64,000 bases of DNA from an uncultured delta proteobacterium. GTDB lineage: Bacteria > Desulfobacterota > Binatia > Binatales > Binataceae. Shown piece by piece: positions 6,468-28,892 of the stretch. A program made the position numbers and the translations under genes. Under the pieces are notes generated by a model, which was not told the DNA's origin, searched no databases, and was given only the letters and a program-made list of their open reading frames with translations. The DNA lies in contig CAWJET010000001.1 of NCBI GenBank assembly GCA_963842085.1, positions 224,001 to 288,000 of the forward strand. The letters are read 5' to 3'. How positions within the stretch are numbered: the stretch's first letter is position 1; the number at the start of each line of letters is the position of its first letter.

Positions 6468-7472
6468 TCACGCCACGTAATGCCGCACCATGCGCCACGA
6501 GTCCTTGAGATTCTTGCCGAACTCGAGCGCCACGGTGCCTTCGAATCCCGAATGCAGCTTGCAGTCGCGACAGCGGAAATCCTGCTTGGTGCGATAGTAT
6601 TCCCAGTCCGTCGCCGCATGCATCTCGTCGAGCGTCTTGTAATGCCCGTTGGTGATCAGGTAGCACGGCCCCTTCCATCCTTGCGGATTGCGCGTCACCG
6701 TAGTCCACGGACTGCACTGCATCTCGCGCTTGCCGACCAGGTAGTCCAGGTAGATCGGCGTGTTGATTATCTTGTAGTCGTTCGCCATGTCGCGAACCTT
6801 GATGAACTTGGCCGGCATCTCCTCTTTCTTCAGATACTCTTCGTCGTTCTGCAGCACCTGGTAGTGATAGCCGGGGCTCAGCAGCATCCCGTCGACGCCG
6901 AGGCTCGTCAGGTACTTGATCATGTTCTCGAGCTCTTCGCCGCTGGTCTCGCGGAAGACCGTCGTGTTGGTCTGCACGCGGTAGCCCTTGTCCTTCAGCA
7001 TCTTGATCATCCTGACGACGATGTCGAAATGCCCCTGCCGGTCGGTCACGCGATCGTTGGTCTCGCGCATCCCGTCCAGGTGCAGGTTGAAGCTGAGATA
7101 GGGGCTCGGCCCCACCTGCTTGACGAAGCGCTCGAGCAGGATCGCGTTGGTGCAGATCATCACGTGACGCTTCTGATCCTCGATCAACCCGCGCGTCAGC
7201 GCCGCGATGTGCTTGTACATCAGCGGCTCGCCGCCGCAGATCGACACAATCGGCGCACCCGCCTCCTCGGCCGAGTGCAGCGCCTCGTCCAGCGGCATCA
7301 TGTCGCGAATCGTGTCCTTGTACTCGACGATTCGCCCGCATCCGATACACGCCAGGTTGCACGCATGCAGCGGCTCGAGCATCAGCACCAGCGGAAAATA
7401 TTTCTCGCCCGCCCGCTTCTTCGCGCGGATGTAGCGGCCCAGGTCGATCATCTGTCTCAGCGGAATGCGCAT
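6468..7472 (-). CDS. hpnH: Adenosylhopane synthase, radical SAM HpnH
   Basis: PLVLMLEPLHACNLACIGCG (CxxxCxxC), GAPIVSICGGEPL and C-terminal CRDCKLHSGFE. Start moved to the ATG at 7472. Confidence 0.9.
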   Translation of the reverse strand: MRIPLRQMIDLGRYIRAKKRAGEKYFPLVLMLEPLHACNLACIGCGRIVEYKDTIRDMMPLDEALHSAEEAGAPIVSICGGEPLMYKHIAALTRGLIEDQKRHVMICTNAILLERFVKQVGPSPYLSFNLHLDGMRETNDRVTDRQGHFDIVVRMIKMLKDKGYRVQTNTTVFRETSGEELENMIKYLTSLGVDGMLLSPGYHYQVLQNDEEYLKKEEMPAKFIKVRDMANDYKIINTPIYLDYLVGKREMQCSPWTTVTRNPQGWKGPCYLITNGHYKTLDEMHAATDWEYYRTKQDFRCRDCKLHSGFEGTVALEFGKNLKDSWRMVRHYVA

Positions 7473-7512
7473 GCTCGTGCGTTCTCCTGCAAGTCGAAGG
7501 TGAAGAAAAAAG

Positions 7513-8172
7513 TCAGGCGGACGGTGCGCCGCCCTCCGATGTAGATGTCCCCGACGGACCGAACAACCACTCACCCACCATCGCCACCGCCCCTTCGGGG
7601 TCAATCGCGTTCGCACCCATAAACAGGTATTCGATCAGCAATCCGTTCAGCGCCGACAGCAGGAACGCCGCCGCCGATTCCGGCGCCGTCCGCCGCGTGC
7701 AGATTCCCTTTTGCTGCGCGCTGGCGATCAGCTCGACCAGCATCGCGCGATATCCGCTGTAGAGCTTGAGCACCTGGTCGTTGAGGCTTTCGGAGAGCTT
7801 CTGGTCGTGGAGCATCTGCGCCAGGAAGAAACGGACCGAGCTGGCGTTGTCGCGCACAAACGACAGGTACGACTCGACCAGCTTCTGGATCTGCGCGCGC
7901 TCGTCCATCACCGACGCTTCTTCGGCAAAGTCGATAAAGTACGGCTCGAGCAGCCGGTTCAGCACCGCCACGAACAACTCTTCCTTGGTTTTGAAGTGCC
8001 AGAAAATAAGCGCCTTGCTGACTCGCGCCTCGCGCGCCACGTCCGACATCGACGTCTCATGGAACCCGCGATTGGCAAATAGCTGCATCGCAGCCTTAAG
8101 GATTTCGTCGCGCGAATCCTGCGATTGCACCCTCGCCTCCGACGCGCCCACTTTGACCTGCGATACGCCCAT
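7513..8172 (-). CDS. TetR/AcrR family transcriptional regulator
   Basis: HTH: ILKAAMQLFANRGFHETSMSDVAREARVSKALIFWHFKTKEELF. An alternative start lies at 8214. Confidence 0.93.
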   Translation of the reverse strand: MGVSQVKVGASEARVQSQDSRDEILKAAMQLFANRGFHETSMSDVAREARVSKALIFWHFKTKEELFVAVLNRLLEPYFIDFAEEASVMDERAQIQKLVESYLSFVRDNASSVRFFLAQMLHDQKLSESLNDQVLKLYSGYRAMLVELIASAQQKGICTRRTAPESAAAFLLSALNGLLIEYLFMGANAIDPEGAVAMVGEWLFGPSGTSTSEGGAPSA

Positions 8173-8272
8173 ATTTCGGCCCCGACGCCCCGCTCTGCTC
8201 CTGTCGTCGCCCATGGCAACGTGAACCGCAGCCTGTTAGTCGAGCCGCCATCTTCCGGTCACAAAAAGCGGC

Positions 8273-8401: not shown

Positions 8402-9433
8402 TTAGTGGATATTTATCTCGATACCGCTGTTGATAGACGATTGCCGCGCCGCCTGGATTAGCATTAGTGCAACACGCGCCTGGGCCAGGTTGCGCTTGGA
8501 TGCGGGCGAATTGGTTCCTTCGGAGACAGCTCCCTCGAACTCCTCTGCCACGCCGCCGAACCACGCCGAATGGTACGAGTCGTCGGCCATGTCCGCTATG
8601 GACAGGTCCTCAGCTTTCCCTGACCGATCAGTACACGTCACCCGATCCCCTTCAATCTCGATAGATGCGTGCTCTCCGTAGATGAGCGCAGAGGTCCGCC
8701 GCACTGGAGCGCGCCACGAAAGATGCGCCCGACAGACTGCTCCGTTCCCGAACCTGATTCGCACGTCGGCCACATCGTCAACGTTCGCGCCCGCCGGCGA
8801 CTCGAGCCGCGCTGAAACCGACACCGGCGGGTCGCCACCCAGCAGCCAATACATGAGGTAGAAGACGTGCCATCCGTGATCGATAAGAATCCCCCCACCC
8901 GACGCCGACGACGCACGCCACTCGCCACCGCTGCCGCCCGCGCCCGCAGGTTCGGTGCGCAGCCGATCGAGCGACATGAAGCGAATCGCGCCCAGCCTCC
9001 CGTCTTCGATCGCCGTGCGCGCCGCCGCATACGCAGGCGCGTACTTCCAGTTGTGCACGCACATCAGCACCCGCCGCTTCTCCGCTGCCAGCGCCGCCAG
9101 TTCATCGAATTCTCCAAGCGAAAGCGCAAGCGGCTTCTCGACCAGCACATGCGTCCCAGCCAGCAGCGCCGCGCGCGCTGCCCCGTGATGCAACCCCGGA
9201 GGACTGGCAACATCCACAAAATCCGGAGCCTCACCGTCGAGCATCAGCTCGAGGTCGTCATACACCCGAACATTCTTGATCAGCCGGATAGCCTCATGCC
9301 GCCGCTCGGAAACCGGATCGTGAATAGCTCCGATCGCAACATTCTCCCGCGTGCGCCATCCAGCCAGATGCGCCCGCGCGGCAACCTCGCCAAATCCCGA
9401 AATAGCGCCTCGCAGTTTTGTCCGACTAGCCAT
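8402..9433 (-). CDS. Gfo/Idh/MocA family oxidoreductase
   Basis: GFGEVA Rossmann loop, HVLVEKP and GGGILIDHGWH. Confidence 0.9.
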   Translation of the reverse strand: MASRTKLRGAISGFGEVAARAHLAGWRTRENVAIGAIHDPVSERRHEAIRLIKNVRVYDDLELMLDGEAPDFVDVASPPGLHHGAARAALLAGTHVLVEKPLALSLGEFDELAALAAEKRRVLMCVHNWKYAPAYAAARTAIEDGRLGAIRFMSLDRLRTEPAGAGGSGGEWRASSASGGGILIDHGWHVFYLMYWLLGGDPPVSVSARLESPAGANVDDVADVRIRFGNGAVCRAHLSWRAPVRRTSALIYGEHASIEIEGDRVTCTDRSGKAEDLSIADMADDSYHSAWFGGVAEEFEGAVSEGTNSPASKRNLAQARVALMLIQAARQSSINSGIEINIH

Positions 9434-10004: not shown

Positions 10005-10856
10005 CTAAACGTACAGCGCCGCGATCTTCTTGAGCGTCCCTTCCGCACTCTCGAACGTCAGGTCGCCCAGGCCCGCGACGAACCGGCCCGCTCCTGCTTC
10101 CGCAAACTCTTTCAGCCCGTCCTGTACCTTCGCGCGATCGCCGCGGATACCGCCCATGATCGTGATGTCCAGATCCGCGAAATTCCTGCCGACTGCGGCG
10201 CACTCGCGCTTGAGTTCATCAACCCGCGTCTTCAATTGCGCCGCGTTCAACGCGATCGGACACCATCCGTCTGCCCATTTCGCCACGCGCTTGAGCGCGT
10301 TCTTGTCGAGGCTGCCGATCAACACTGGCGGCCCCGACTTCTGCGCCGGCTTCGGCAACGACTTCACCGGTGGAAATTTGACGTACTTGCCCTCGAACGA
10401 CGATTGGTCCTCGGTCCACAACTTGCGCATCGCGGCGACTATCTCGGCCGTTTCGCTCCATCGACGCGGGAAATCGACGCCGAACAAATCGCTCTCCTCG
10501 CGCAGCCATCCGGCGCCGATCCCGAACAGTACGCGGCCGCCCGAGTATGCGTCCAACGTCGCGAACTGCTTGGCGAGCGCGAGCGGTTCATGCTCAGGCA
10601 CCAGGCAGATTCCAGTGGCGAGTTTCAGCTTCTTGGTGACGGCGGCCGCCATGCTGAGCGTGATCATCTGATCGGCCATCGTGAAGTATGTCGGCGGAAT
10701 CGGACCTCCGGTGGGGAACTGCTGCTTGGGATTCGCGGGCATCGCCGGATGCTCCGGCACCCAGATCGATTCGAAGCCGAGCGATTCCGCGACACGCGCA
10801 AATTCCGCGGGATGAGCATTCCTGCCGGTGAACGGCGTCAGCAATCCAATTTTCAT
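10005..10856 (-). CDS. LLM-class (probably F420-dependent, Rv2161c-like) oxidoreductase
   Basis: AESLGFESIWVPEH, LAKQFATLDAYSGGRVLFGIGAGWLREE and RVAKWADGW. Start moved to the ATG at 10856. Confidence 0.88.
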   Translation of the reverse strand: MKIGLLTPFTGRNAHPAEFARVAESLGFESIWVPEHPAMPANPKQQFPTGGPIPPTYFTMADQMITLSMAAAVTKKLKLATGICLVPEHEPLALAKQFATLDAYSGGRVLFGIGAGWLREESDLFGVDFPRRWSETAEIVAAMRKLWTEDQSSFEGKYVKFPPVKSLPKPAQKSGPPVLIGSLDKNALKRVAKWADGWCPIALNAAQLKTRVDELKRECAAVGRNFADLDITIMGGIRGDRAKVQDGLKEFAEAGAGRFVAGLGDLTFESAEGTLKKIAALYV

Positions 10857-10955
10857 TTTGCCCTCATTAAGGTGCAGGGGCTGCCCCTGCCCAAGGAAGT
10901 GTGAACCCCCACGGCGGGGTCTCACATTCAATTAAGTGATCTACCCTTCCCCCCG

Positions 10956-11432
10956 CTACCACCCGAAAAAATCTTTCGCCGCCACAAACTTCGCGACGCC
11001 TGCTGCTTCGCCCGCGAGCCGGTCGACCTCCTGATCGCCGACCATCGTCGACGATGCCAGATTTACGCCATACAGGTTCGCCAGCTCCGTGATCATTCCA
11101 CCCTTGGGCTTGCGGCATTGGCAATTGTCGTCGTCCGTATGCGGACAGACTTGCCACCCGGTCAGGATATCGCCGAGCTGATGGTCGAGCTGGGCGAGCG
11201 CCGCTTCTACTTTTTCCGCCTTGAGGCGCCCGCGCCCGATCCCTGCCTGGTTGGTCACGACGAACATCAGATGGTTATGCAACGGCCGAAGCTTCTCGGC
11301 CACGCCCGGCAGCAGTTCGATTACGACGTTGCCGTCGGCGTCGAGCGGAAGCTCGCGCGTGTCGTTGAGTTTTACCAGCGTGCCGCCGAGATCGAAGAAC
11401 AGCGCCGCGTTGCCGTTCGGATTGGTCATCAA
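10956..11432 (-). CDS. HAD-IIIA family phosphatase (GmhB/HisB-N-like)
   Basis: FFDLGGTL, VVTNQAGIGRG, Zn site CPH...CQCRKP and MVGDQEVD. Confidence 0.85.
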   Translation of the reverse strand: MMTNPNGNAALFFDLGGTLVKLNDTRELPLDADGNVVIELLPGVAEKLRPLHNHLMFVVTNQAGIGRGRLKAEKVEAALAQLDHQLGDILTGWQVCPHTDDDNCQCRKPKGGMITELANLYGVNLASSTMVGDQEVDRLAGEAAGVAKFVAAKDFFGW

Positions 11433-11446
11433 AAAAAGATTTTCGC

Positions 11447-12811
11447 TTATGCGTGGCGCCAGTCAACGTGGTCGCGAACGTGCGCGAACACTTCGTCCAT
11501 TATCTCGACGCCGGCTTCGGCCTGCGCCTCGGTAATAACCAGCGACGGATTGATTCGAATCTTGGGAAAGTAGCCCATGATCACCAGCCCGCGCTTCAGG
11601 CATTCGGCGAAGATCAGCTCGGTGACTTTCTTGCCGAGCAGTTCCTTGGTCTCGAGATCGCGCACCAGCTCGACGCCTATCAGCAGTCCCTTGCCGCGGA
11701 CGTCGCCAATGAACTCGTATTTTTCCTTGAGCTGCACCAGCCGCGACAGCATCATCGCGCCGACCTTGCGCGAGTTCTCGACCAGATGCTGTCGCTCGAT
11801 CGCACCGATCGTTTCCGCCACGGCGACCGCCGCCAGCGGATTTCCGCCGTAGCTCGACGACGACGCGCTCGGCTTCCCGAACGGCTCCGCCTTGCCCAAC
11901 TCGTCGCTCAGCAGCACGCCCGAAACCGGGAAGCCGGAGCCCATTCCCTTGCCGACCGTGACGATATCGGGGCAGACGCCGCTATGTTCGACGCCCCACC
12001 ATTTTCCGGTCCGCCCGAAGCCGGTGATCATTTCGTCGGCAATCAGAAGCGCGCCGAAATCCTTGGCCACCGACTTGACCGCGGGCATCCAGTCGTCGGG
12101 CGGAATCACGTTGCCCGCCGTACCCTGCATCGGCTCGGCAACGATCGCCGCGAGCGCACCGCTGGAACTCATCTTGATCTGCTGGCGCGCGAAATCGACG
12201 CAGTAAAGCCCGCAGTCGGGATACTTCAACTTGAACGGGCATCGATAACAGTCCGCGTACGGCACTGTGTACTGCCCGGCCTGCAACGGACCGTAGCCTT
12301 GCTTCGATTCGTCGCCGATAAGTCCGAGCACGCCGCCGGTCTTGCCATGGAACCCGCCCCAGAAGCTGACGGCTTCATACTTGCCGGTCGCGGAACGCGC
12401 CAGCCGGAGCGCGGCTTCGACCGCCTCGGCGCCCCCGCTATATAGATGTGCGCGGTTGAGTCCGGCGGGCGCGACTTCGGCCAGCGCCTTGAACGCGGCC
12501 GCGCGCTCCCTGGTCGCGAACGTGCCGACTATAAGCCGCGACGCCTGGTTCGCGAGGGCCTGCGCCAATCCCGGATGCGCATGGCCGAGGCTGGCGACCG
12601 CGACGCCGGCGAAAAAATCGACGTAGGTGTTGCCGTCGGCGTCGGTCAGCGTCGCGCCCTCGCCGTGGTCGAACGCGAGGCCGGCGAGCAGAGAAATTCG
12701 CTGGCGGCCCGGGGCGATATATTTTTGTTCGAGGTCGAAAATCTCCTTCGACCTGGGTCCTGGAACTCGCGTCTTGATGGCCGGAAGCTTTCCGTTGCTG
12801 GAGGTCTTCAA
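11447..12811 (-). CDS. Class-III PLP-dependent aminotransferase (GabT/ArgD fold)
   Basis: SGGAEAVE, GFHGKT, AEPMQGTAG, LIADEMITGFGRTG and PDIVTVGKGMGSG (PLP lysine). Confidence 0.92.
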   Translation of the reverse strand: MKTSSNGKLPAIKTRVPGPRSKEIFDLEQKYIAPGRQRISLLAGLAFDHGEGATLTDADGNTYVDFFAGVAVASLGHAHPGLAQALANQASRLIVGTFATRERAAAFKALAEVAPAGLNRAHLYSGGAEAVEAALRLARSATGKYEAVSFWGGFHGKTGGVLGLIGDESKQGYGPLQAGQYTVPYADCYRCPFKLKYPDCGLYCVDFARQQIKMSSSGALAAIVAEPMQGTAGNVIPPDDWMPAVKSVAKDFGALLIADEMITGFGRTGKWWGVEHSGVCPDIVTVGKGMGSGFPVSGVLLSDELGKAEPFGKPSASSSSYGGNPLAAVAVAETIGAIERQHLVENSRKVGAMMLSRLVQLKEKYEFIGDVRGKGLLIGVELVRDLETKELLGKKVTELIFAECLKRGLVIMGYFPKIRINPSLVITEAQAEAGVEIMDEVFAHVRDHVDWRHA

Positions 12812-13674
12812 TTGATAGGGGTCCGATTCCTTGTTTGAATTTCCGGCGCGATTCTAGCGCGGGCGGCGAGCAGACTCATCGCGCGGTGTGCGATCGCACG
12901 CGCGGCAGATTCGCGCACCCGGCTGTAACTGGGCCAGTCGTTAAAATCGATAATCGCAAAACGATCGCCACTCAAGACCGCGTCTCCGCCCCATGCCTCC
13001 AGGCCGAGCGCCCCGGCTGCCGCGAAAGCCGCCTCCGACAACGCGCGCACAGCGGCTTCGGCGACTTGCTCGTCGTCCGGATGCACGCTGAAATGCGAAC
13101 CGCCGCCGACGCCGTAAAACTTGACCACCCGGCCGACGACTTCCTGCTGCACGTAGGCGAAGCGGATTCGGCGCCGCGCGAAATCGGCGAGAATCGATTC
13201 GACGCCCGCGCGATCGTCCGCCCGCTGCACGTCCTCGGGCGCGAGCGCGTGCAAGTCACCGCGCTTGACGAACACGCCCGCCGACAGATCGAGGCCCGTG
13301 AGCTTGCGCGCGTCGAGCGGCTCGTCCGCCGCGATCAGCACGCCCGGGGGCGTCGGCACGCCGGCCTGCTCGAGGCCGGCGGCGAGCAGGTCGCGGTAGC
13401 AGTTGCGAATCGAGAGCGCGGAGTTAAGCGCGACCGCACCCGCCTGCTCGACTTCGGCCAGCCGCTTGAGCGCCCGCGGTCCCTGGCACATCGGCAGCAC
13501 GAGATCGGCGCGCGGCGGTGCGGCAGCGGCGAAGCTGACCGCGTCGATTGCCTGGATCCCGACACCTTCGCCCTTCAGCTCCGCCAGGGTGGCATCTAGG
13601 ATCGCAGCGTCGGCCTCGACCTTGCCCGGTGAAAAGTCAGGCTCCCGATAAATTCCCAAAGCTCGATAGCTCAT
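12808..13674 (-). CDS. ATP-grasp-fold protein of unknown function
   Basis: LEQAGVPTP, VFVKRGD, YVQQEVVG..VKFYGVG and GLEAWGGD...IIDFNDWPSYS. 4-nt overlaps with both neighbours. Confidence 0.7.
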   Translation of the reverse strand: MSYRALGIYREPDFSPGKVEADAAILDATLAELKGEGVGIQAIDAVSFAAAAPPRADLVLPMCQGPRALKRLAEVEQAGAVALNSALSIRNCYRDLLAAGLEQAGVPTPPGVLIAADEPLDARKLTGLDLSAGVFVKRGDLHALAPEDVQRADDRAGVESILADFARRRIRFAYVQQEVVGRVVKFYGVGGGSHFSVHPDDEQVAEAAVRALSEAAFAAAGALGLEAWGGDAVLSGDRFAIIDFNDWPSYSRVRESAARAIAHRAMSLLAARARIAPEIQTRNRTPIN

Positions 13675-14396
13675 GGCATCTTCCGTATTGCGACGCGCGC
13701 GGCGTCGAGGTCCGACGCTTCATCCACATCGATCGATCCTTCGATCTCGATCGCGTCCAGCCGCATCCCGCGTTCGATGATCATCGCGAGGAAGCGGCGG
13801 AGCGCGTCGAGTCCGGTGCGGCGCGCGTCAGCGGCGTAGTCGAAAACTCTGGACGACAGGAAATAGAGCCCTGCCGTCACCATAGAAGTCTGACGGTTGC
13901 CCAGCCGCAGGATCAACCCATTCTCTGTTACATCGGCGTAAAGCGGCTTGGCCTCGCCGCGCCATCGCGTGACGGCGAGCACACCGGCCAGATTTTTGTC
14001 GCCACAATCCTCGATTTTCCGCCGCGACTCATTAACAAAACGCGCCAATTCCGCCTGCGGAATTACAGCGTCCACCGTCGCCGCGATAAACCATCCCGGC
14101 TGCAGCACCTCGCCAAGCGCCAGCATCGTTTCCATCGAATTGGCGGTGTCGCGAACGACGAGCCTGACCGACGGCGGAACCGCGAGCGCCATTTCGCCCG
14201 CGATACGCGCCGTCTCGGAGTTGATCACCGCGACGACCGAGTCGGCGCCCGCCTCCAGCAGCGCGCGCGCCTGCCGCGAGAGCATCGCCTCGCCGCCGAG
14301 CTTGACGAGCGGCTTGGGAATATCGTCGCGCGTCGAGACGCGCAGCCGGTCGCCGCGGCCGGCGGCAATAATCGCTCCTTGCAATCCCGTCACCAT
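13671..14396 (-). CDS. NTP transferase (sugar/polyol-phosphate nucleotidyltransferase)
   Basis: GAIIAAGRGDRL...PKPLV glycine-rich loop and C-terminal IDVDEASDL. Confidence 0.88.
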   Translation of the reverse strand: MVTGLQGAIIAAGRGDRLRVSTRDDIPKPLVKLGGEAMLSRQARALLEAGADSVVAVINSETARIAGEMALAVPPSVRLVVRDTANSMETMLALGEVLQPGWFIAATVDAVIPQAELARFVNESRRKIEDCGDKNLAGVLAVTRWRGEAKPLYADVTENGLILRLGNRQTSMVTAGLYFLSSRVFDYAADARRTGLDALRRFLAMIIERGMRLDAIEIEGSIDVDEASDLDAARVAIRKMP

Positions 14397-15118
14397 TGGA
14401 TTTGCGCAACCTCGTCGATCGATCGGATCGTGATGTCGGCCACACTCTCATCGTCGGCGTGTTGCGGGCTGGTGCTCAACCAGACCGTGCGCATTCCAAG
14501 TTTGCGCGCGGGTGCGCAATCCTTGGCGAGCGAATCGCCGATCATCGCGATCGATTCGGGCGCACATTGTAATTTTTTCAAAGCGGCTTCGAAGATGCCG
14601 GCCTCGGGTTTGAAAATTCCGACGCGCGAAGAGTCGGTCACCACCGCGAAGAACCGATCCATCTTCGCCTCTTCCAGGACGCGGTCGAGATTTCCGTAGA
14701 AGTTCGAGACGATGCCCAGCTTGAAGCGGCTTCTGAGCGGACCGACGACCTCGCGGCTGTGCGCGAGACCCACCGACGTCTCGCGGACAAAGGAGTTCGT
14801 GACACCCTCGACGAATCGATGGCGTCCGGCGGCGCCGGAATCGTCGAGCATCGCGCGAAGCGGGTCCGGCCCACTTTTCCGCAGGTATTCGAATTGATGG
14901 CCGACGAGGAATCGCGCCAGGTCCGTCATCCCGAAGCGCCCCACAACCCTCGTTGCGCCGTAGCCGATTCGCGTCGCGTGCTCGAAGGCCGGGTCGAGCT
15001 CGGCGCGCGAAATTCCGATGCCGACAGCACGGTAGCCGGCGAGGAACCGATCGAGCCAATGCGCAGGCCCGTCGAGCGTGCCGCCGAAATCGAATAGCAG
15101 AGCGGTGACCGTGGCCAT
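14390..15118 (-). CDS. HAD family hydrolase
   Basis: LLFDFGGTLD, GIVSNFYGNL, KPEAGIF and MIGDSLAKD. Confidence 0.87.
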   Translation of the reverse strand: MATVTALLFDFGGTLDGPAHWLDRFLAGYRAVGIGISRAELDPAFEHATRIGYGATRVVGRFGMTDLARFLVGHQFEYLRKSGPDPLRAMLDDSGAAGRHRFVEGVTNSFVRETSVGLAHSREVVGPLRSRFKLGIVSNFYGNLDRVLEEAKMDRFFAVVTDSSRVGIFKPEAGIFEAALKKLQCAPESIAMIGDSLAKDCAPARKLGMRTVWLSTSPQHADDESVADITIRSIDEVAQIQW

Positions 15119-15363
15119 GAAACGGCCAGTTTACCAGTCGCGGTGAGCAGCCTCTAGTTCAGGCTCGATCAACATGGCTTAATTGAAAGCAGAGCGATCT
15201 CGGAGGCAATGTGCTTCAAAGAACCGATGAAAAACGCTTTATACAACAGCCGAACTCATAATTGAGGGCCGAAGTTAGTAGCAAGGCTACTTCCGCTAGG
15301 GTTACTGCTGTGTTACGGTGACGCGGATCGCAGACGACGGGGAAACCGGGTTTTAATATAAGA

Positions 15364-16551
15364 TTGGTGATCGAAACTGCTCTAATCGCTGCACCCGACC
15401 GCGCCAGCAACGCGGTCTTCGGCCGTCCGCTGTTAGAGCGGCTGATGATTAATTGCGAGCGCGCCGGGATTAAACGCTTTGTCGTCGCGGCGCCGCGCGC
15501 GCAGTATGCAGAAGTCGCGCGCGCGATGGGCCGGTACAAAGATAGCGACACGGTCTCGATGGTAGAATCGTTGGCTGAGATTCTGAACCATCGGAATGCG
15601 CAGGAATTAGGCATCGATCCGTCGTCGCCCTGCGTGTTCTTTTCGGGAAACCTGGTATTTGCAAAGTCGCACCTGGCGCGAATCCTCGACGCCCACGCCT
15701 CCAATCCGAAGTCGGTACACCGGGCAGTCAGCACCGACGGTGACCGGGGCGGCGAAATCGCGACCGGCCCGGTCGGCGAGCTTCTGAAGAGTGGGGGAAT
15801 ATCGAACACGGTGGCGGCGCCTGCCCCGAGCCTGCTGCCGTTCGCGTTGAACGGACGGCCCGAGGATCGCGAGGAAGCGGAACTGCGGCTGGCGAAATCG
15901 GTTCGCGAGGAATCGGCGCACAAGGACGCGCCGATGGCGCGATGGGTAGACCGGCGGATTTCGTGGCGCATCAGCTACTGGCTCGCAGTGCATACGCGCG
16001 TCACGCCGAACATGGTGACGGTCGCCAACACAATGTTAGGGCTGTCGTGCGCGTGGATGTTCTCGGTTCCTAACTACTGGATGCGGCTGTTCACGGCGAT
16101 TTTCTTTTTGATCTCGATAACGATCGATGGCGTCGATGGCGAACTGGCGCGGCTCAAAATGGTCGAGAGCGAGTTCGGCGGCACGCTCGACGTGGTCACC
16201 GACAATATTGTGCACGTGGCGGTGTTCGTCGGACTGCTGGTCGGATGCTACCGCGTCGAGCACAGTCGCGCTTACCTGTACCTGATTCCGATCCTGCTCG
16301 GCGGATTTGCGGCCTGCGCTTACGCCACGTGGCGCGCCTTCAAGGTAAAGGGCAAGCAGGCGGCACAATGGCTGGACAAAATCGATCGATGGAGCGGGCG
16401 CGATTTCGCCTACCTGCTCGTGGTATTGGCCTTAATCAATCGGCTAGAGTACTTCGCCTGGGGAACGGCATTCGGTACTTACGTGTTTGCCCTGGTGCTG
16501 ATATGGATTACCGGCCGGACCGCATCGTCAATGACGCCTGAGAGCCTGTAG
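15364..16551 (+). CDS. CDP-alcohol phosphotransferase with N-terminal nucleotidyltransferase-like domain
   Basis: TPNMVT and the signature IDGVDGELAR...GGTLDVVTD in a multi-TM C-terminal half. The N-terminus (FGRPLLERLMINCERAGI) resembles NTP transferases. Confidence 0.88.
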   Translation: MVIETALIAAPDRASNAVFGRPLLERLMINCERAGIKRFVVAAPRAQYAEVARAMGRYKDSDTVSMVESLAEILNHRNAQELGIDPSSPCVFFSGNLVFAKSHLARILDAHASNPKSVHRAVSTDGDRGGEIATGPVGELLKSGGISNTVAAPAPSLLPFALNGRPEDREEAELRLAKSVREESAHKDAPMARWVDRRISWRISYWLAVHTRVTPNMVTVANTMLGLSCAWMFSVPNYWMRLFTAIFFLISITIDGVDGELARLKMVESEFGGTLDVVTDNIVHVAVFVGLLVGCYRVEHSRAYLYLIPILLGGFAACAYATWRAFKVKGKQAAQWLDKIDRWSGRDFAYLLVVLALINRLEYFAWGTAFGTYVFALVLIWITGRTASSMTPESL

Positions 16552-16583
16552 GAAGGAACCGCGGCCTTGCAGGCGGAGGAAGT

Positions 16584-17915
16584 ATGAACGGCAAGAAGCC
16601 CCGAATTCTGTTGGTGCAACCGACGACCGTCCATCTCGACGGCACCCCGCACAAGACGCGCTGGCGGCTGATCATGGGGCTGATGATTCCGCTGATGGCG
16701 GGACTGACGCCTGACGAATACGACGTGACGCTGTGCGACGAGCGCCTCGAGGACATCAACTTCGACGGCGGATGGGACCTGGTCGGCATGACCACGACCA
16801 TCGGCGCGTCGCTGCGCGCGTACCAGCTCGGCGACGAGTTCCGTAAACGCGGGATCCCGGTCGTGTTCGGCGGATTCCATGCGACGCTGCAGACCGAAGA
16901 GGCGCTGCATCATTGCGACGCGGTCGTGCAAGGCGAGGCCGACCTGGTGTGGCCCGAACTGCTGCAGGACTGGCGCGACGGCAAGCTCAAGCACATTTAC
17001 AAGGCCGACAAGCTGCACGACCTGAAGAACCTGCCACGCCCGCGCCACGAGCTGCTCAAGCTCAATCGCTACCTGTTCAAAGCGGTGCCGGTGCAGGCGA
17101 GCCGCGGATGCCCCTATCGATGTTCGTTCTGCGAGATTCCTGTGTTCTACGAGGGCGCCTATCGGACGCGGCCGATCGAGGACATCGTCGAGGAGATCAA
17201 GCAGGTCATGAAGGTGACCGGCTTCAAGCGCTTTCAGTTCATCGACGATCAGATCACCGGCAAGCACAAGTTCGCGCGCGAGTTGTTCAAGGCGCTCGAA
17301 CCGCTCAACATCCGCTTCTCGTGCCTGTGGACGATCAACTCGAATCACGACGATGATTTGCTCGAGCTTGCGGCCAAGGCGGGCATCTTCCACGTCAACA
17401 TCGGAGTGGAATCGATCAGCCAGGAAAGCCTGCTGTCGATGAACAAGATTCAGAATCACGCCGGGCAGTACAAGAAGCTGCTCAAGAAGCTCGAAAAATA
17501 CGGGATCTACTACTCGCTCAACTTCCTGTTCGGGCTGGAAGAGGATCATCCGGGAATTTTCGACGACACACTGAAGTTCCTGCATGAGGTCAAGGCGCCC
17601 GAGGCCTTCTTCAACACGGTGACGCCGCGCGTCGGCACGCCGATGCGCACGCAGCTCGAGAACGAGGGCCGCGTGATAATCCCCGACGCCGACCTCTACA
17701 CCAACAACTTCCGTTGCATGTTCGTGCCCAAGAACATGTCGCCGCAGGAAGTCGAGGAAGGCGTGTGGCGCTGCACCAAGGAGTTCTACTCGCTCAAGTC
17801 GATGTTCAAGCGGCTGCTGATGCCGCCGGGAAAGTTCACCTGGCAAGGACTGACTGAGAACATGCTCTTCTACTGGGGCGCGAAGCGGCAAATCGATCCG
17901 GTTGATTACTATTAG
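16584..17915 (+). CDS. B12-binding radical SAM enzyme
   Basis: N-terminal cobalamin domain (DLVGMT...PVVFGGFHAT), SRGCPYRCSFC, FIDDQ, GVES and TPRVGT; GGAGG RBS. Confidence 0.92.
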   Translation: MNGKKPRILLVQPTTVHLDGTPHKTRWRLIMGLMIPLMAGLTPDEYDVTLCDERLEDINFDGGWDLVGMTTTIGASLRAYQLGDEFRKRGIPVVFGGFHATLQTEEALHHCDAVVQGEADLVWPELLQDWRDGKLKHIYKADKLHDLKNLPRPRHELLKLNRYLFKAVPVQASRGCPYRCSFCEIPVFYEGAYRTRPIEDIVEEIKQVMKVTGFKRFQFIDDQITGKHKFARELFKALEPLNIRFSCLWTINSNHDDDLLELAAKAGIFHVNIGVESISQESLLSMNKIQNHAGQYKKLLKKLEKYGIYYSLNFLFGLEEDHPGIFDDTLKFLHEVKAPEAFFNTVTPRVGTPMRTQLENEGRVIIPDADLYTNNFRCMFVPKNMSPQEVEEGVWRCTKEFYSLKSMFKRLLMPPGKFTWQGLTENMLFYWGAKRQIDPVDYY

Positions 17916-17927
17916 GCCAGCCCGGAT

Positions 17928-18242
17928 TTGATCCTAAAGACTCTCGCGGTGCTGGTGCTTGCCGCGGTGCTCGAGGTGGGCGGCGATGCGCTGGTCCGGA
18001 TAGGGCTGCATACCTACGGCTACCCGCTTGCAGCAGGCGCGTTCGCGCTTTTCGCCTACGGCATCCTGGTCAATCAAGGCGGCGTCGATTTCAATCGCCT
18101 GATGGGAATCTACATCGCAGTTTTCTTCGTAGTGTCGCAGGCGATCTCACTCATTCTCTTCAAGCAGGTCCCCGACGATAGAATCCTGCTCGGCGGCGGC
18201 TTCATCGTAGCCGGCGGCCTGGTGATTCTGCTGATGACGTGA
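17928..18242 (+). CDS. Small 4-TM membrane protein (SMR/YnfA-like)
   Basis: 104 aa with four hydrophobic segments and an intramembrane Glu in TM1 (AAVLEVGGD). Confidence 0.7.
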   Translation: MILKTLAVLVLAAVLEVGGDALVRIGLHTYGYPLAAGAFALFAYGILVNQGGVDFNRLMGIYIAVFFVVSQAISLILFKQVPDDRILLGGGFIVAGGLVILLMT

Positions 18243-18371
18243 GTCGGCGCGCCGTCACGCGGCTGTAGCAGCAGCAGTAGAGCAGCAGGTTGCCCGATCA
18301 GGCGCGTCTTGCCGACGCGGGCGGCGATGGCGGTTAGGATCGGACGATTGAAAGAGTCAATTCCGCGTCGA

Positions 18372-19292
18372 TCAGTTGGTGGCTTGCAGGACGTTGGCCG
18401 GCACCGTCATCGTGACCTGCAGGCGTTTGCCGTTGCGCACGACGCTGAGGTAGACCAGTTCGCCCGGCTGAAGGTCGCGCATGCAATCCTGGAAGTCGAG
18501 AAAGTTGGTCACGCGGGAGCCGTCGACGCCGATGATCATGTCGTAGCTCTCGCCGACCTGCATGTAGTCCAGCGCGGGAATGACCACCACCGACAAGCCG
18601 CCGGAGAAAACCGCTCCCACCATCGCAGCCGCCGCGAGCGCGTCGTGGACGGTATGGCTGTAGGGCTGCAAGCCGGCGGCGGCGGCCGGGCTGCCTTTCG
18701 CGACGGCCGTGATCAGCAGGCCGTCCGCGTCCTCGCCGGATTTGAGCGTGCGCTTCGCTTCGCGCAATTGCATTCCGAACGGAGTCGAAAGCTCGCCCTC
18801 GCTGTCGAACTCCTGCAAGGCCCTGAGCTGCTCCGGCGGCATCCCGCTCTGCTCCTCCTGGTAACGCGCGATTTCATCGCGGTCGTCGGCGGGCTGCGAA
18901 TCCGTGGGGCTCGGCGGCTGCTGCGACGCGCCGGCAGGATTGGGGGGCTGAATCTCGACAGCGCCGGGCTGCGTGGCGTCCATGTCAGGCGGGGTCGGAA
19001 CCATGTTCGACGGACCACCGGTTGTGGCGGAATCGGCAGATGGCGCGGCCACCGTGCGCGGAGGCGCGGGTGCGGCGACTTCTGCGATCGGTGCGCCAGC
19101 GGCGGGTGCCGCGGCCGGGCTTGCAGCGGCGGCAGATGCGGCGGCGGTCTTCCATGTCGCAGTGGCGGCGGTGTCGGCGGACTGGGCGGCAGCGAGCGCG
19201 CTTGCGATCAGAACCAGCGTCATCGCGGCGAGCGATGCGCCCAAAGCGCGAGGCGCGCGCGCTCTGCTAGTTAAGTCTCCAGTGCTTTTCAT
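18372..19292 (-). CDS. Exported Ala/Pro-rich protein with C-terminal PDZ domain
   Basis: Signal-like N-terminus, low-complexity linker, then GLLITAVAKGSPAAAAGL...DMIIGVDG...LSVVRNGK. Start uncertain. Confidence 0.75.
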   Translation of the reverse strand: MKSTGDLTSRARAPRALGASLAAMTLVLIASALAAAQSADTAATATWKTAAASAAAASPAAAPAAGAPIAEVAAPAPPRTVAAPSADSATTGGPSNMVPTPPDMDATQPGAVEIQPPNPAGASQQPPSPTDSQPADDRDEIARYQEEQSGMPPEQLRALQEFDSEGELSTPFGMQLREAKRTLKSGEDADGLLITAVAKGSPAAAAGLQPYSHTVHDALAAAAMVGAVFSGGLSVVVIPALDYMQVGESYDMIIGVDGSRVTNFLDFQDCMRDLQPGELVYLSVVRNGKRLQVTMTVPANVLQATN

Positions 19293-20145
19293 GCTCCACC
19301 ACGCGGCCCTCTCGCTCGAGCTTTCGCAGGTGAGAGCGGACCGAGCTTGCCGCCGCCGGATGCAGATACTCGGGAACATCGGTGTATATCTTCTTCACGA
19401 TCGCCATCGCGTCGAGCGGTCCGGCGCCGTCCGAGAGCGCCTCGAGCACCTGGCGCTCGCGCAATTCGCGATGAGCGATATATTCACCGATCTTCTCTTT
19501 CGGATTGCGGATGACCGGACCGTGAGCCGGGTAAATCGTCTCGAGATCGAGCGCGAGCAGGCGCCGGAGCGAATCCATGTACTCGCCCAAATCGCCAGTA
19601 TCGTCGGGAATGACTGTAGTACCTGCGCCCAGCACGACATCCCCCGTGAACAGCGCGCGCTCTTCTTCAAGATAGTAGCACAAGTGATCGGGCGCGTGCC
19701 CAGGAGTAAAAACCGCACGCAGGGTGGCGCCTTCGGTGTGCACGACGGCATCGTGGCCGATCGCGGAAATCGCGCCGGCGGGAGCGTCGTGGCCCTCCCA
19801 CGGCATCTTCAGCACTTCCATCTCGCCGAATCGCTCGGTGACCTGCTTCACGCCTCCCAGGTGATCGACATGCGCATGTGTCAGGACAATTCGTTCGAGT
19901 TCGCTGCTGCCGGAGAGTTCTTTGAGCGCGGCTTGGAGCAGGTCGGCGTAAATCGCGACGCCCTGGCCCGTGTCGAGCAAGATCGGGCGCTTCGAGGTGC
20001 CGACGATATAAGTGTTCGTGCCGGGTCCGGTGAAGGGACTCGGATTCTGGCCGAGCACGGTGGCGACGCGCGGCGTGATCCGCGAGTAATCCGGCATCTT
20101 GAGACCGATCATCGAATCGGTCACGACCCGCCGCTGCTTGCTCAT
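19267..20145 (-). CDS. MBL-fold metallo-hydrolase (LACTB2-like)
   Basis: NPSPFTGPGTNTY, THAHVDHLGG, TPGHAPDH, FTGD, PAHG and a C-terminal winged helix. Confidence 0.9.
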   Translation of the reverse strand: MSKQRRVVTDSMIGLKMPDYSRITPRVATVLGQNPSPFTGPGTNTYIVGTSKRPILLDTGQGVAIYADLLQAALKELSGSSELERIVLTHAHVDHLGGVKQVTERFGEMEVLKMPWEGHDAPAGAISAIGHDAVVHTEGATLRAVFTPGHAPDHLCYYLEEERALFTGDVVLGAGTTVIPDDTGDLGEYMDSLRRLLALDLETIYPAHGPVIRNPKEKIGEYIAHRELRERQVLEALSDGAGPLDAMAIVKKIYTDVPEYLHPAAASSVRSHLRKLEREGRVVEHEKHWRLN

Positions 20146-27270: not shown

Positions 27271-28881
27271 CTAGTAGAGCCGTCCTTCCTGCTGCCAGAT
27301 TTTCGGCAGGCCAAAGTCGTGCGCGATAACCTTGTAGGCGTTGTAGCCGCCGGCCGCGCTGATTCCGCCGCCGCCCGCCGACGCGCCGCACATGTACAGT
27401 CCCTCGATTTCGGTGCGGTAGATGTGCTTCCGCGGCAGCCCGGGATTCATATGGCCGAGCCGACCGTGCGAGAAATCGCCCTCGGGCATCGCGATCCGCC
27501 GCTCCATGTCGAGGGAGACGTATAGCTTGTCCGCGAGCACGTTCTCGCGCGTCATGTTGGGGGCGTAGGTGCGCCAGAGCTCGAGGAATTTTCCGTTGTA
27601 CTCGCGCCGCACGGTGTCCCATTCCTCCGGGCTGAGGCACGAAGCGCGCGGAAAGAAGAACCATCCGTTCATCGCATGGAGTCCCGGCGGCGCCTGGCTG
27701 GGATCCCAAAGCGAGTTGACCCACGTACCCGCGCCGGGACGGTCGGGAATCTGCCCGCCGTAGGCCTGCAGGATGTAGTCGGAGACCTGGTGAGCGTCCT
27801 CGAATCCGACGATTGTGTAAAAGCACTTGTTGATGTCGGGGTTGTGCCGCGCGGACTTGTAGTCGGGTGGATTGCGCAATGCGAACGACGGCGTCCCGAG
27901 CACGTGCTCAGGACCGAAGCGCCAGTTCGCCATCCGCTCTTTGCGGAAGTCGCTCAGCTTCTCCCACCCCATCAGATCGACAAAGGTGGTTTTCGGATCG
28001 GCGTTGGACGCTATCAGCTTGCGCGCCTCGACCGTGCGCCCGTCCTTCAACCTGACGCCGGTGGTGCGTCCGCCTGAGTTCAGAATCTCGACGACCGGGC
28101 TGCTGTAGCGGAGGTCCGCGCCCGCCGCGAGCGCCGCACTCGCCATCGCATGCGCGAGGGTATGAGTGCCGCCGATCGACAGGTAATGATTGCCGCACAG
28201 CCAGATCACCGCCATCACGAATCCCATGCCGTCGCCGGCGTGCAGGTTAGCTCCCCATTCGACGCACTGGCGATACATCGTCGCCCGCATCTCGCTCGAC
28301 TCGAACACTTCGTCGATCAGCACCTTCGGGCACTTGTTCAGTTCTTGGGGTTTGAAGCCGATGTCGAGCCACAACTGCATCATCCGGCCCAGGATCGTTT
28401 CGTCGCGCCCATCAGACGGGACTTCGTTGGCCGGCGGGCTATAGAGCATAGCCGAGATGTAGTTGTTGGCATCGAGCACTTTGCGCCGGATCGCATCGAA
28501 AGTGTCGGCGTCGCGGCGCGAGTAGTGCGCGATGCTTTGGCGGGTCTTGTCCGCGAATTCGGGACGGTAGATGACCAGCGGCGGCCTGCCATCGGCAAAC
28601 GTAATCCCGACCTGCGCGTCGGGCTTGATCATCCGCGCGCCGAAACCGGGCAAGTCGAAGTCGCGATAGAAGGGCATCATCTCGATGAACTCCATGTACT
28701 GGGCATGGAGGTTGTGCCAGAAGCCGGGCACGGTGGCCTCGTCGGTATGCGCGCCGCCGCCTTCGTCGTGACGCCGCTCGAACATCCCGACTTTCAGGCC
28801 TGCGCGCGCGAGATAGGCGGCGAGGCACAGCCCGTTGTGGCCGGCCCCGATAATCACCGCGTCGTAAGATGCGTCTGCCAT
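27271..28881 (-). CDS. Phytoene dehydrogenase-like FAD oxidoreductase (COG1233), paralogue B
   Basis: DAVIIGAGHNGL...FERR..EGG, PGFWHNLH and YRTEIEGLYMCGAS; GAGGAG RBS. Confidence 0.9.
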   Translation of the reverse strand: MADASYDAVIIGAGHNGLCLAAYLARAGLKVGMFERRHDEGGGAHTDEATVPGFWHNLHAQYMEFIEMMPFYRDFDLPGFGARMIKPDAQVGITFADGRPPLVIYRPEFADKTRQSIAHYSRRDADTFDAIRRKVLDANNYISAMLYSPPANEVPSDGRDETILGRMMQLWLDIGFKPQELNKCPKVLIDEVFESSEMRATMYRQCVEWGANLHAGDGMGFVMAVIWLCGNHYLSIGGTHTLAHAMASAALAAGADLRYSSPVVEILNSGGRTTGVRLKDGRTVEARKLIASNADPKTTFVDLMGWEKLSDFRKERMANWRFGPEHVLGTPSFALRNPPDYKSARHNPDINKCFYTIVGFEDAHQVSDYILQAYGGQIPDRPGAGTWVNSLWDPSQAPPGLHAMNGWFFFPRASCLSPEEWDTVRREYNGKFLELWRTYAPNMTRENVLADKLYVSLDMERRIAMPEGDFSHGRLGHMNPGLPRKHIYRTEIEGLYMCGASAGGGGISAAGGYNAYKVIAHDFGLPKIWQQEGRLY

Positions 28882-28892
28882 ATAAGTCTCCT

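Follow-up and report, generated by a model that had tools for sequence, protein, structure and literature searches.

A conserved gene cassette beside hopanoid genes in an uncultured Binataceae bacterium, and its candidate role in amino-cyclitol phosphodiester synthesis

What is made by the divergent gene cluster that lies beside the hopanoid genes of an uncultured member of the Binataceae (Desulfobacterota)? The cluster occupies positions 10956-18242 of the DNA analysed here, a stretch of 64,000 nucleotides (the window; positions 224,001 to 288,000 of contig CAWJET010000001.1, GenBank assembly GCA_963842085.1) whose proteins find their closest database relatives under names from Candidatus Binatus or Binataceae. 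An initial reading of the sequence (the original prediction) saw in its eight genes a pathway to the head group of a polar lipid, and all eight open reading frames (ORFs) were found again at those positions. We observe that the conserved unit is made up of six genes, one of which had been left outside the cluster. With a probability of roughly 0.55, these genes encode a set of soluble enzymes and one membrane transferase that build an inositol-derived amino-cyclitol phosphodiester by reactions, in an order and on an acceptor that are predicted below.

A six-gene unit that recurs across phyla

On the minus strand, the operon opens with a HAD-IA phosphatase (14390-15118; Pfam Hydrolase and HAD_2) and continues with a stand-alone nucleotidyltransferase (NTP-transferase), a predicted cytidylyltransferase (13671-14396; NTP_transf_3 and NTP_transferase), an ATP-grasp enzyme of 288 residues (P0001; 12808-13674) and a class-III (omega-type) pyridoxal phosphate-dependent aminotransferase (11447-12811; Aminotran_3, 315 bits). 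Successive genes overlap by 7 nt (14390-14396), 4 nt (13671-13674) and again 4 nt (12808-12811, reading TTGA). Across a divergent spacer (15119-15363), the plus strand encodes a CDP-alcohol phosphotransferase of 395 residues (P0002; 15364-16551; CDP-OH_P_transf at residues 213-368). Further along the minus strand lies a Gfo/Idh/MocA-type NAD-dependent dehydrogenase (Gfo; 8402-9433; Pfam GFO_IDH_MocA and C-terminal domains). The gene order, the 7/4/4-nt overlaps, the 14-nt gap that follows the aminotransferase gene and the 245-nt spacer were all re-read from the sequence as first described, and the family calls (HAD, NTP_transferase, Aminotran_3, HAD-IIIA, CDP-OH_P_transf, and B12-binding plus Radical_SAM) were matched by Pfam or NCBIfam models.

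The ATP-grasp sequence was searched against a sample of 151 genomes of the phylum, 16 of which were positive, and the neighbourhoods of 12 matches, from 12 other genomes of the phylum, were compared. The HAD, NTP-transferase, ATP-grasp and aminotransferase genes are contiguous in all 12 loci. Gfo follows the aminotransferase in 11, a CDP-alcohol transferase gene is present in nine and an HpnH homologue in four; these counts come from related genomes and overstate the independence of the observations. A pattern scan of a collection holding one genome per species gave at least 594 loci, 80 of which were kept for comparison, and 92 related loci were considered overall. The four contiguous genes were found again in dozens of loci outside the phylum, and the same order was seen in Syntrophobacteraceae, Verrucomicrobiota, Elusimicrobiota, Polyangiaceae, Gemmatimonadota and Ignavibacteria.

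The loci fall into three arrangements. In arrangement A1, to which the window belongs, the aminotransferase is followed directly by Gfo and a long transferase (mostly 375-543 residues) is encoded elsewhere in the locus; it occurs in Binataceae, Syntrophobacteraceae, Desulfoferrobacter suflitae, Verrucomicrobiota, Elusimicrobiota and Polyangiaceae. In arrangement A2, a short transferase (mostly 283-324 residues) is placed between the aminotransferase and Gfo, in Gemmatimonadota, Ignavibacteria and one Bacteroidetes metagenome-assembled genome. The transferase in this position was detected by tblastn in 14 of the 17 A2 loci and by Pfam in one (L104), and was assigned by spacing only in L089 and L100. 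Arrangement B consists of NTP-transferase, ATP-grasp, short transferase, a flippase-like gene and HAD, with neither aminotransferase nor Gfo, and is found in Sphingobacterium, Dyadobacter, Olivibacter, Muribaculum, Prevotellaceae and other Bacteroidales.

Several of these genes also occur as fusions. Eight long ATP-grasp homologues were scanned with Pfam: six are NTP-transferase-ATP-grasp proteins, one is a HAD-NTP-transferase-ATP-grasp protein and one joins ATP-grasp to a CDP-alcohol transferase. In locus L058 (9992-12148), an ORF of 718 residues fuses ATP-grasp to a class-III aminotransferase, and the same locus has HpnI-like, HpnJ, HpnA and HpnH genes. Recurrence across phyla, together with the fusion proteins, indicates that the arrangement is more than chance.

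The conserved unit is therefore six genes: HAD-IA, NTP-transferase, ATP-grasp, aminotransferase, Gfo and a transferase of the IPCT/DIPPS or AF2299 type. The core genes do co-occur in other genomes, and HAD-IA, NTP-transferase, ATP-grasp, aminotransferase and transferase stand as members of the unit of eight originally predicted. However, the HAD-IIIA and radical-SAM genes of that unit are limited to the lineage, the small ORF at its end is not conserved, and its span omitted Gfo, although a homologue follows the aminotransferase in nearly every related locus of the phylum.

One locus of the comparison (L016; G083:C8:104000-123900) carries a duplicated or split cassette with two copies of ATP-grasp and two CDP-alcohol transferase matches. 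Between its copies lies a relative of the B12-binding radical-SAM enzyme of the window (38% identical).

Predicted activities of the core enzymes

The CDP-alcohol phosphotransferase motif DX2DGX2AR...GX3DX3D is intact in the window transferase (D-G-V-D-G-E-L-A-R...G...D...D, read from DGVDGELARLKMVESEFGGTLDVVTD). Across 34 homologues, D255, G256, G259, A262, R263, G272 and D280 are invariant, and D258 and D276 are at least 90% conserved. The best NCBIfam match is to IPCT/DIPPS (NF041135), at 76.7 bits against a cut-off of 580 and over residues 185-381 only, and the best sequence match among solved structures is AF2299 (E 4e-15). The predicted model has a local confidence score (pLDDT) of 90.7 and six transmembrane helices. 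At full length its best Foldseek match is the Archaeoglobus fulgidus IPCT-DIPPS structure (4mnd; E 1.3e-9, TM-score 0.61/0.60), and AF2299 is also among the best. All 13 cassette transferases that were scanned, long and short, have as best match IPCT/DIPPS, archaetidylinositol-phosphate synthase or phosphatidylinositol-phosphate (PIP) synthase, in every case far below the cut-off.

The cassette shares with the A. fulgidus system, which makes di-myo-inositol phosphate, the combination of cytidylyltransferase, CDP-alcohol phosphotransferase and phosphatase, and the fold match spans the whole transferase, N-terminal cytidylyltransferase-fold domain and six transmembrane helices alike. That N-terminal domain also matches KdsB, IspD and TarI. 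Nevertheless, it differs from IPCT in having no glycine-rich GxGxR loop, the corresponding segment reading ALIAAPDRASN, and R26 is its sole invariant residue (G35 is at least 90% conserved). The domain thus looks like a degenerate cytidylyltransferase. By contrast, the canonical signature AAGRGDRL...KPL is carried by the separate NTP-transferase, which would be the active enzyme, so that the two proteins together look like a split IPCT plus a DIPPS-like enzyme. A two-domain architecture with a non-catalytic cytidylyltransferase-like domain is likewise found in AF2299 (4O6M), which is about 18% identical to the transferase in a structural alignment. AF2299 was solved with CDP-glycerol and, according to Clarke 2015, processes no lipids. 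The best fit of the transferase model to these two structures and the canonical NTP-transferase signature support the original view that the genes form a single pathway built on the logic of IPCT/DIPPS. To that logic the cassette adds ATP-grasp, aminotransferase and dehydrogenase, and the genomic context suggests a lipid product and not a solute.

The ATP-grasp ORF has no match in Pfam or NCBIfam. A profile built from 82 family members and searched against solved structures matched PsnB (7drm; 3e-8), RimK (5e-6) and plant and human inositol-phosphate kinases (ITPK chains; 1e-6 to 3e-5), the last over only the final 50-70 residues. An AlphaFold (AF2) model with a pLDDT of 95.6 superposes on RimK and LysX with Z of about 22 (RimK, Z 22.4 and root mean square deviation 3.1 over 254 residues), and Foldseek aligned it to Ddl with E 1e-13. 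In the family K137, K185 and N245 are invariant, and D231 and D243 are at least 90% conserved. These results confirm a three-domain ATP-grasp fold with conserved lysines and Mg-binding Asp/Asn residues, and the profile search and the confident model bear out the original family call. The protein belongs to an undescribed family that no Pfam model covers and that is large: clustering at 50% identity leaves 866 representatives, and the one-genome-per-species collection has at least 594 of its loci.

Weak Pfam matches among the 82 members were to Ins134_P3_kin (12 members, best E 3e-5), ATPgrasp_ST (15 members, 0.0019) and RimK (nine members, 0.0072). The window protein itself does not match the ITPK model (PF05770, Ins134_P3_kin). 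The D-x-N metal motif of the family aligns with D-x-N of the ITPK chains, whereas RimK and PsnB show E-x-N. From these weak pointers the enzyme is predicted to be an ITPK-like cyclitol or cyclitol-phosphate kinase. It is kept in the amine-less Bacteroidota variant, which implies that its step needs no amine. Two other routes to a function were set aside: the graspetide ligase PsnB carries no functional hint, and the fold cannot assign a function since ligases and kinases score alike; a language-model atlas, too, lists both RimK-like and Ins134_P3_kin-like clusters.

The aminotransferase is the best-conserved gene of the cassette, with orthologues 73-83% identical inside Binataceae and 47-63% outside; L095 is an exception, with a fragmented match at 61%. 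Its best NCBIfam match reaches 358 bits against a cut-off of 552 and GabT 255.7 against 506.65, and the best 25 of its 69 matches are all below cut-off. For Gfo the best NCBIfam match is inositol 2-dehydrogenase IolG (73 bits, cut-off 355). Sequence searches of solved structures with Gfo, NTP-transferase and aminotransferase returned generic family matches only. None of the proteins falls into a characterised unrelated clade, the equivalog cut-offs for GabT, GmhB and sugar-1-phosphate transferases all being unreached, in keeping with the original prediction of a distinct pathway. Gfo is the likely partner of the aminotransferase, in which role it would convert an alcohol to a ketone. The two genes co-occur, and the Bacteroidota variant has neither, a pattern that points to the replacement of one hydroxyl group by an amine. 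HAD-IA is kept in 12 of 12 phylum loci and also in the Bacteroidota variant.

Substrate, product and rival pathways

Inositol-3-phosphate synthase (MIPS) is encoded within the fetched flanks of 22 of the 92 loci (12 with the aminotransferase and 10 of type B), and in some, such as L023 and L025, between cassette genes. In the phylum sample, 13 of the 16 cassette-positive genomes have MIPS; the three without a match are 62-85% complete. It had been noted originally that no inositol-phosphate synthase is present here, and this is true of the locus; the step from there to a polyol other than inositol fails, since MIPS is encoded in the genome and beside the cassette in those 22 loci.

A comparable cluster has been proposed from gut bacteria. 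Heaver et al. 2022 (PMC9246714) put forward an NTP-transferase, a CDP-alcohol phosphatidyltransferase and a HAD protein beside MIPS as an alternative inositol-lipid cluster for Bacteroides vulgatus and Prevotella. The proposal rests on phosphatidylinositol (PI)-dihydroceramide in two species without the Bacteroides thetaiotaomicron genes, and the functions are given there as unconfirmed. The Bacteroidota set named in the original prediction is thus real and is homologous to the window cassette: the NTP-transferase, CDP-alcohol phosphotransferase and HAD genes are all three found in the window and have homologues in the loci of Sphingobacterium, Dyadobacter, Prevotellaceae and Muribaculum. In the fetched Bacteroidota loci the same ATP-grasp family stands between NTP-transferase and transferase, and an LPG-synthase-TM/HpnL-like gene is common to both systems. 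However, the Bacteroidota form is without aminotransferase and Gfo, its short transferase lacks the N-terminal domain, and its proteins are 24-36% identical to those of the window. It often lies directly beside MIPS, whereas the MIPS gene of the present genome is remote from the cassette.

The term ATP-grasp does not occur in the main text of Heaver et al. 2022 (PMC9246714), although Supplementary Table 5, outside that scope, may name the gene. ATP-grasp thus seems to have been overlooked as a component of the alternative inositol-lipid route that was put forward for Prevotella and Bacteroides of the gut. No later functional study of that cluster was found in our literature search, and no paper describing the cassette, the ATP-grasp family or an inosamine phospholipid, supplementary tables being outside its scope. 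What is known is CDP-alcohol head-group synthesis and the IPCT/DIPPS logic; what is new is the six-gene amino variant, the ATP-grasp component and the association with hopanoid clusters.

MIPS adjacency, the family matches of the transferase and the likeness of arrangement B to the Heaver cluster make inositol the most likely starting material, and the substrate is most likely inositol that is aminated by the dehydrogenase/aminotransferase pair. An aminated cyclitol phosphodiester, as first proposed, remains the best reading.

The genes around the cassette suggest where such a product would go. An HpnL-like flippase-type protein (PF03706) is encoded in all four cassette loci annotated at the corresponding position (L043, L058, L083 and L104; HpnL model 82-113 bits, cut-off 195.65), three of which also have MlaE/F/D, MlaC and outer-membrane efflux genes. 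A membrane lipid head group is the most likely product. In this lineage the acceptor may be a glycerolipid, a sphingolipid or the terminal hydroxyl of a bacteriohopanepolyol.

Two of the loci show further features. In Sphingobacterium multivorum NCTC11343 (L083:11785-12785) the PF03706 gene is broken into a pair of ORFs (186 and 162 residues), which may reflect a frameshift or a sequencing error. On a Verrucomicrobiae chromosome (L066:13084-15707) the genes next to the cassette encode a class-I/II aminotransferase and a fatty-acid desaturase with the N-terminal motif of sphingolipid delta-4 desaturases, and these neighbours hint at a link to ceramide synthesis.

Arrangement A1 follows the distribution of hopanoid producers, and hpnH or hpnJ is often its immediate neighbour. 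In the phylum sample, squalene-hopene cyclase (SHC) was matched in 13 of the 16 genomes with the cassette and in 21 of the 135 without it. Among further genomes it was matched in 17 of 19 with A1 (two of the 17 being fragmented, sub-cut-off matches; 16 of 18 when the unpublished genome G186 is left aside), in one of 17 with A2 and in none of 11 with B; it was not found in a 5.9-Mb Ignavibacteriaceae chromosome. As the genomes are related, these counts overstate the independence of the observations. Arrangements A2 and B indicate that the module does not depend on hopanoids. True HpnJ (728-758 bits, cut-off 577.6) is encoded at most 1.3 kb from the cassette in L019, L043, L047, L058, L090, L101 and L105. 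HpnH homologues lie in the fetched flanks of L014, L018, L019, L025, L038, L039, L058 and L095, and those of L014, L018, L019 and L058 exceed the cut-off; in L058, HpnA is also above its cut-off and HpnI slightly below. The hopanoid side-chain genes hpnH, hpnI, hpnJ, hpnA and hpnL are thus physical neighbours of the cassette in the window as well as in many related loci, but no cassette gene reaches the cut-off of an Hpn model. The main text of a preprint on hopanoid gene neighbourhoods (10.1101/2025.07.29.667474) contains none of the terms ATP-grasp, CDP and nucleotidyl, its tables being outside that scope.

For hopanoid producers with this gene order we tentatively suggest, as a doubtful but attractive extension, that the long transferase joins a phospho-amino-cyclitol to the terminal hydroxyl of bacteriohopanetetrol, or a CDP-hopanepolyol to inositol phosphate. 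If so, a composite hopanoid linked through a phosphodiester, or "hopanoid phospholipid", would result. The usual hopanoid analyses are based on acetylation and would miss phosphodiester-linked hopanoids. The tie to hopanoid clusters makes the existence of phospho-linked hopanoids directly testable.

In the pathway that we propose, MIPS, encoded elsewhere in the genome, would supply myo-inositol 3-phosphate. Gfo would oxidise one ring hydroxyl, and the aminotransferase would turn the resulting ketone into an amine, giving an inosamine. ATP-grasp, as an ITPK-like kinase, would add a second phosphate, the one to bear the nucleotide. The NTP-transferase would then transfer CMP to yield a CDP-cyclitol, which the IPCT/DIPPS- or AF2299-type transferase would couple to the acceptor alcohol, and a HAD phosphatase would finally strip off the phosphate left from MIPS. 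This order gives each of the conserved genes a step and agrees with most of the fusions, namely ATP-grasp-aminotransferase, NTP-transferase-ATP-grasp and the transferase-HAD fusion reported by Heaver et al.

A variant with free cyclitols is conceivable, in which HAD would act first, followed by dehydrogenase, aminotransferase and kinase, as in streptidine synthesis. Streptidine biosynthesis employs an inositol dehydrogenase, an aminotransferase, a kinase and a phosphatase, the aminotransferases being of the DegT/StsC type and the kinase APH-like. The same four reaction types on myo-inositol would thus recur in the cassette, and the streptidine dehydrogenase is also of the Gfo/Idh/MocA type. 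To our knowledge, however, the streptidine pathway involves neither CDP activation nor a membrane transferase.

Several observations weigh against the amino-cyclitol phosphodiester pathway. The only MIPS gene of the genome (G000:C1:115920-116258) lies 108 kb from the start of the window and not in the locus, and MIPS is so common in the phylum (92 of 151 genomes) that co-occurrence alone is weak evidence. Gfo resembles sugar or nucleotide-sugar dehydrogenases at least as closely as it does inositol dehydrogenases, and the weak best matches of the NTP-transferase are sugar-1-phosphate enzymes (AglF, archaeal GlmU, MurU and a heptose-pathway protein). The ATP-grasp fold fits ligases (RimK, LysX and Ddl) at least as well as kinases, and a peptide ligase, 7drm, is the best profile match among solved structures. 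No assay of any cassette enzyme was found in the literature, and the homologous cluster of Bacteroidota is likewise a prediction. According to Clarke 2015, AF2299 and DIPPS, the nearest solved relatives of the transferase, process no lipids, and six-helix CDP-alcohol transferases are tied to soluble acceptors; this favours a soluble product or a step order like that of PIP synthase.

The soluble product would be a compatible solute resembling di-myo-inositol phosphate: CDP-cyclitol would be coupled to a second cyclitol phosphate and dephosphorylated by HAD, giving an amino-substituted di-inositol phosphate or a related diester. The transferase speaks for such a solute, in that its full-length model fits IPCT-DIPPS and AF2299 best, its best NCBIfam match is IPCT/DIPPS and neither of the two structural relatives processes lipids (Clarke 2015), and the cassette retains one or two phosphatase genes. 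We nevertheless regard it as unlikely, since genes for hopanoids, sphingolipids, HpnL-type flippase-like proteins, Mla and outer-membrane efflux flank the cassette, PI-dihydroceramide lipids accompany the homologous cluster in Bacteroidota (Heaver et al.), and the conserved ATP-grasp would be left without a role.

A lipid-first order is less likely still. Here ATP-grasp would phosphorylate a lipid alcohol (bacteriohopanetetrol in the present genome, ceramide in Bacteroidota), the NTP-transferase would make the CDP-lipid, the transferase would couple it to inositol 3-phosphate, and HAD would remove the leftover phosphate before Gfo and the aminotransferase aminate the bound inositol. PIP synthase and archaetidylinositol-phosphate synthase, the families that the window transferase matches next best, share with the cassette the building of a phosphodiester on inositol phosphate and, through PIP phosphatase, its later dephosphorylation. 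Those synthases differ in using CDP-diacylglycerol or CDP-archaeol from the membrane enzymes CdsA and CarS, and need no soluble NTP-transferase or ATP-grasp. The cassette transferases do resemble enzymes that accept inositol 1-phosphate and have six transmembrane helices; this order would account for the conserved HAD and for the CDP-alcohol-transferase-HAD fusion reported by Heaver et al.; and the cassette tracks makers of non-glycerol lipid alcohols, with SHC in most A1 genomes and sphingolipid producers among the Bacteroidota. On the other hand, ATP-grasp and NTP-transferase are soluble proteins of folds not known to act on lipids, the ATP-grasp-aminotransferase fusion better fits consecutive small-molecule steps, and SHC was not found in 16 of the 17 A2 genomes.

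It is improbable that inositol is absent from the pathway altogether and that a sugar-1-phosphate nucleotidylyltransferase, followed by WbpB/WbpE-like oxidation and transamination, provides a nucleotide-linked amino sugar for a glycan or glycolipid. The sugar-1-phosphate relatives of the NTP-transferase, and matches of Gfo to UDP-GlcNAc 3-dehydrogenase and WbpB, would fit this route. But no glycosyltransferase is conserved with the cassette, whereas the CDP-alcohol phosphotransferase and MIPS are, and the aminotransferase is of class III and not of the DegT type usual for nucleotide sugars. Although the locus lies 3.8 kb from hpnH and beside SHC, and HpnO is a class-III aminotransferase, it is very improbable that the aminotransferase is an HpnO making aminobacteriohopanetriol and the remainder an unrelated neighbouring operon, as the gene is translationally coupled to ATP-grasp, is fused to it in L058 and has 48-58% identical orthologues in the same cassette in 16 genomes where SHC was not found.

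The amino variant is present in at least six phyla. If the amino-cyclitol phosphodiester pathway is correct, its carriers would make a head group of amino-cyclitol phosphate, which might explain some of the "unidentified aminophospholipids" in polar-lipid profiles of soil bacteria. Two carriers can be cultured: Desulfoferrobacter suflitae DRH4 has the amino variant, next to hpnJ, and Sphingobacterium multivorum has the amine-less one.

Lineage-specific neighbours and the surrounding locus

The HAD-IIIA phosphatase, of the histidinol-phosphatase-domain type, is encoded on the minus strand at 10956-11432, after a gap of 14 nt from the aminotransferase; its start could equally well be an ATG that lies 3 nt further in. 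It scores 88.7 bits with TIGR01656 (cut-off 84.15) and 84.2 bits with the GmhB equivalog, below the cut-off of 178. It follows the aminotransferase in 15 of the 18 Binataceae-type loci and in no other locus. Downstream on the same strand, an F420-dependent LLM-class oxidoreductase (10005-10931; TIGR03619, 245 bits, cut-off 166.9) has homologues after HAD-IIIA in six of the 18 (L029, L030, L031, L032, L039 and L040) and is judged from its distribution to be a lineage-specific neighbour.

The B12-binding radical-SAM enzyme (16584-17915, plus strand; Radical_SAM and B12-binding) adjoins the transferase in 15 of the 18 Binataceae-type loci, where it is 88-93% identical, compared with 43-83% for its neighbours. 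It is below the cut-off of every named family compared (HpnJ, 81.6 against 577.6 bits; HpnR, 49.1 against 650; BchE, 102.5 against 481; PhpK family, 87.4 against 600). Orthologues that are 52-57% identical occur in Geobacter, Geotalea, Geomonas, Nitrospirota and Elusimicrobia, and those of six other phylum-sample genomes (45-53%) lie away from any cassette gene. The contexts of four orthologues, scanned with Pfam, contained LarC plus HIT, or HcyBio with or without MarC. The LarC/HIT context suggests a conserved function unrelated to lipids. The link to the cassette is read as lineage-specific synteny; a role in the pathway inside Binataceae is possible, with the 32-nt spacing from the transferase gene as the one point in its favour.

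A methylated or rearranged polyol, which the original prediction had drawn from the radical-SAM gene, is poorly supported, because the gene travels with the cassette only inside Binataceae and its orthologues elsewhere stand in unrelated contexts; the idea was dropped, although it may still hold within Binataceae. A phosphonate route of the Fom1/Fom3 type was dropped in view of MIPS adjacency and the unlinked radical-SAM gene, with no search for phosphoenolpyruvate mutase made.

In two genomes of 1.7-1.8 Mb, the radical-SAM orthologue is located between a LarC-type nickel-insertion gene and a HIT-family gene (L108:1774-4704 and L112:6813-9734). Two amine-less Bacteroidales loci (L081:16035-17474 and L103:10731-12173) encode an HpnJ-like B12 radical-SAM protein (167-177 bits against 577.6) within about 1 kb downstream of MIPS, and SHC was not found in either genome. 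This protein may act on an inositol or sugar head group in a carbocycle-forming or related reaction.

The small hydrophobic ORF of 104 residues that ends the cluster (17928-18242, plus strand) has only a sub-threshold YnfA/UPF0060 match. With no tblastn match at E<=0.1 in the 92 related loci, it is not upheld as the membrane component of the cassette for which it had been taken.

The divergent spacer presumably carries both promoters. A sigma-70 consensus scan found no site in it, and the total number of sites was not above that in shuffled sequences, a result that does not exclude promoters. The spacer had been called AT-rich. Its GC content is indeed locally lower (0.568 at 15000-15499, against 0.61-0.71 in most neighbouring 500-nt windows), but it is AT-rich in relative terms only; three 500-nt windows within 16000-18000 are also low (0.57-0.60).

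Beyond Gfo, the minus strand encodes a TetR regulator (7513-8214; family match) and the adenosyl-hopene transferase HpnH (6468-7616; TIGR03470, 377.7 bits, cut-off 225). HpnH belongs to a hopanoid block that continues with farnesyl diphosphate synthase, a Zn-dehydrogenase, SHC, Dxr and HpnC; the scores of HpnC, SHC and HpnH exceed the NCBIfam cut-offs. In its longest form the HpnH ORF shares about 100 nt with the TetR gene (6468-8214), and as the HpnH model match begins at residue 49, the true start is probably further in. A second full-length SHC gene (684 bits) lies outside the window at G000:C1:465567-467435.

Past the cluster, two long ORFs overlap on opposite strands at 18309-19379; the one on the minus strand (18372-19379), which encodes a PDZ domain, is probably genuine, and the one on the plus strand has no match. 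A gene of the CrtO-like carotenoid ketolase/desaturase family (27271-29091; 150 bits, below the cut-off) lies 9 kb past the cluster.

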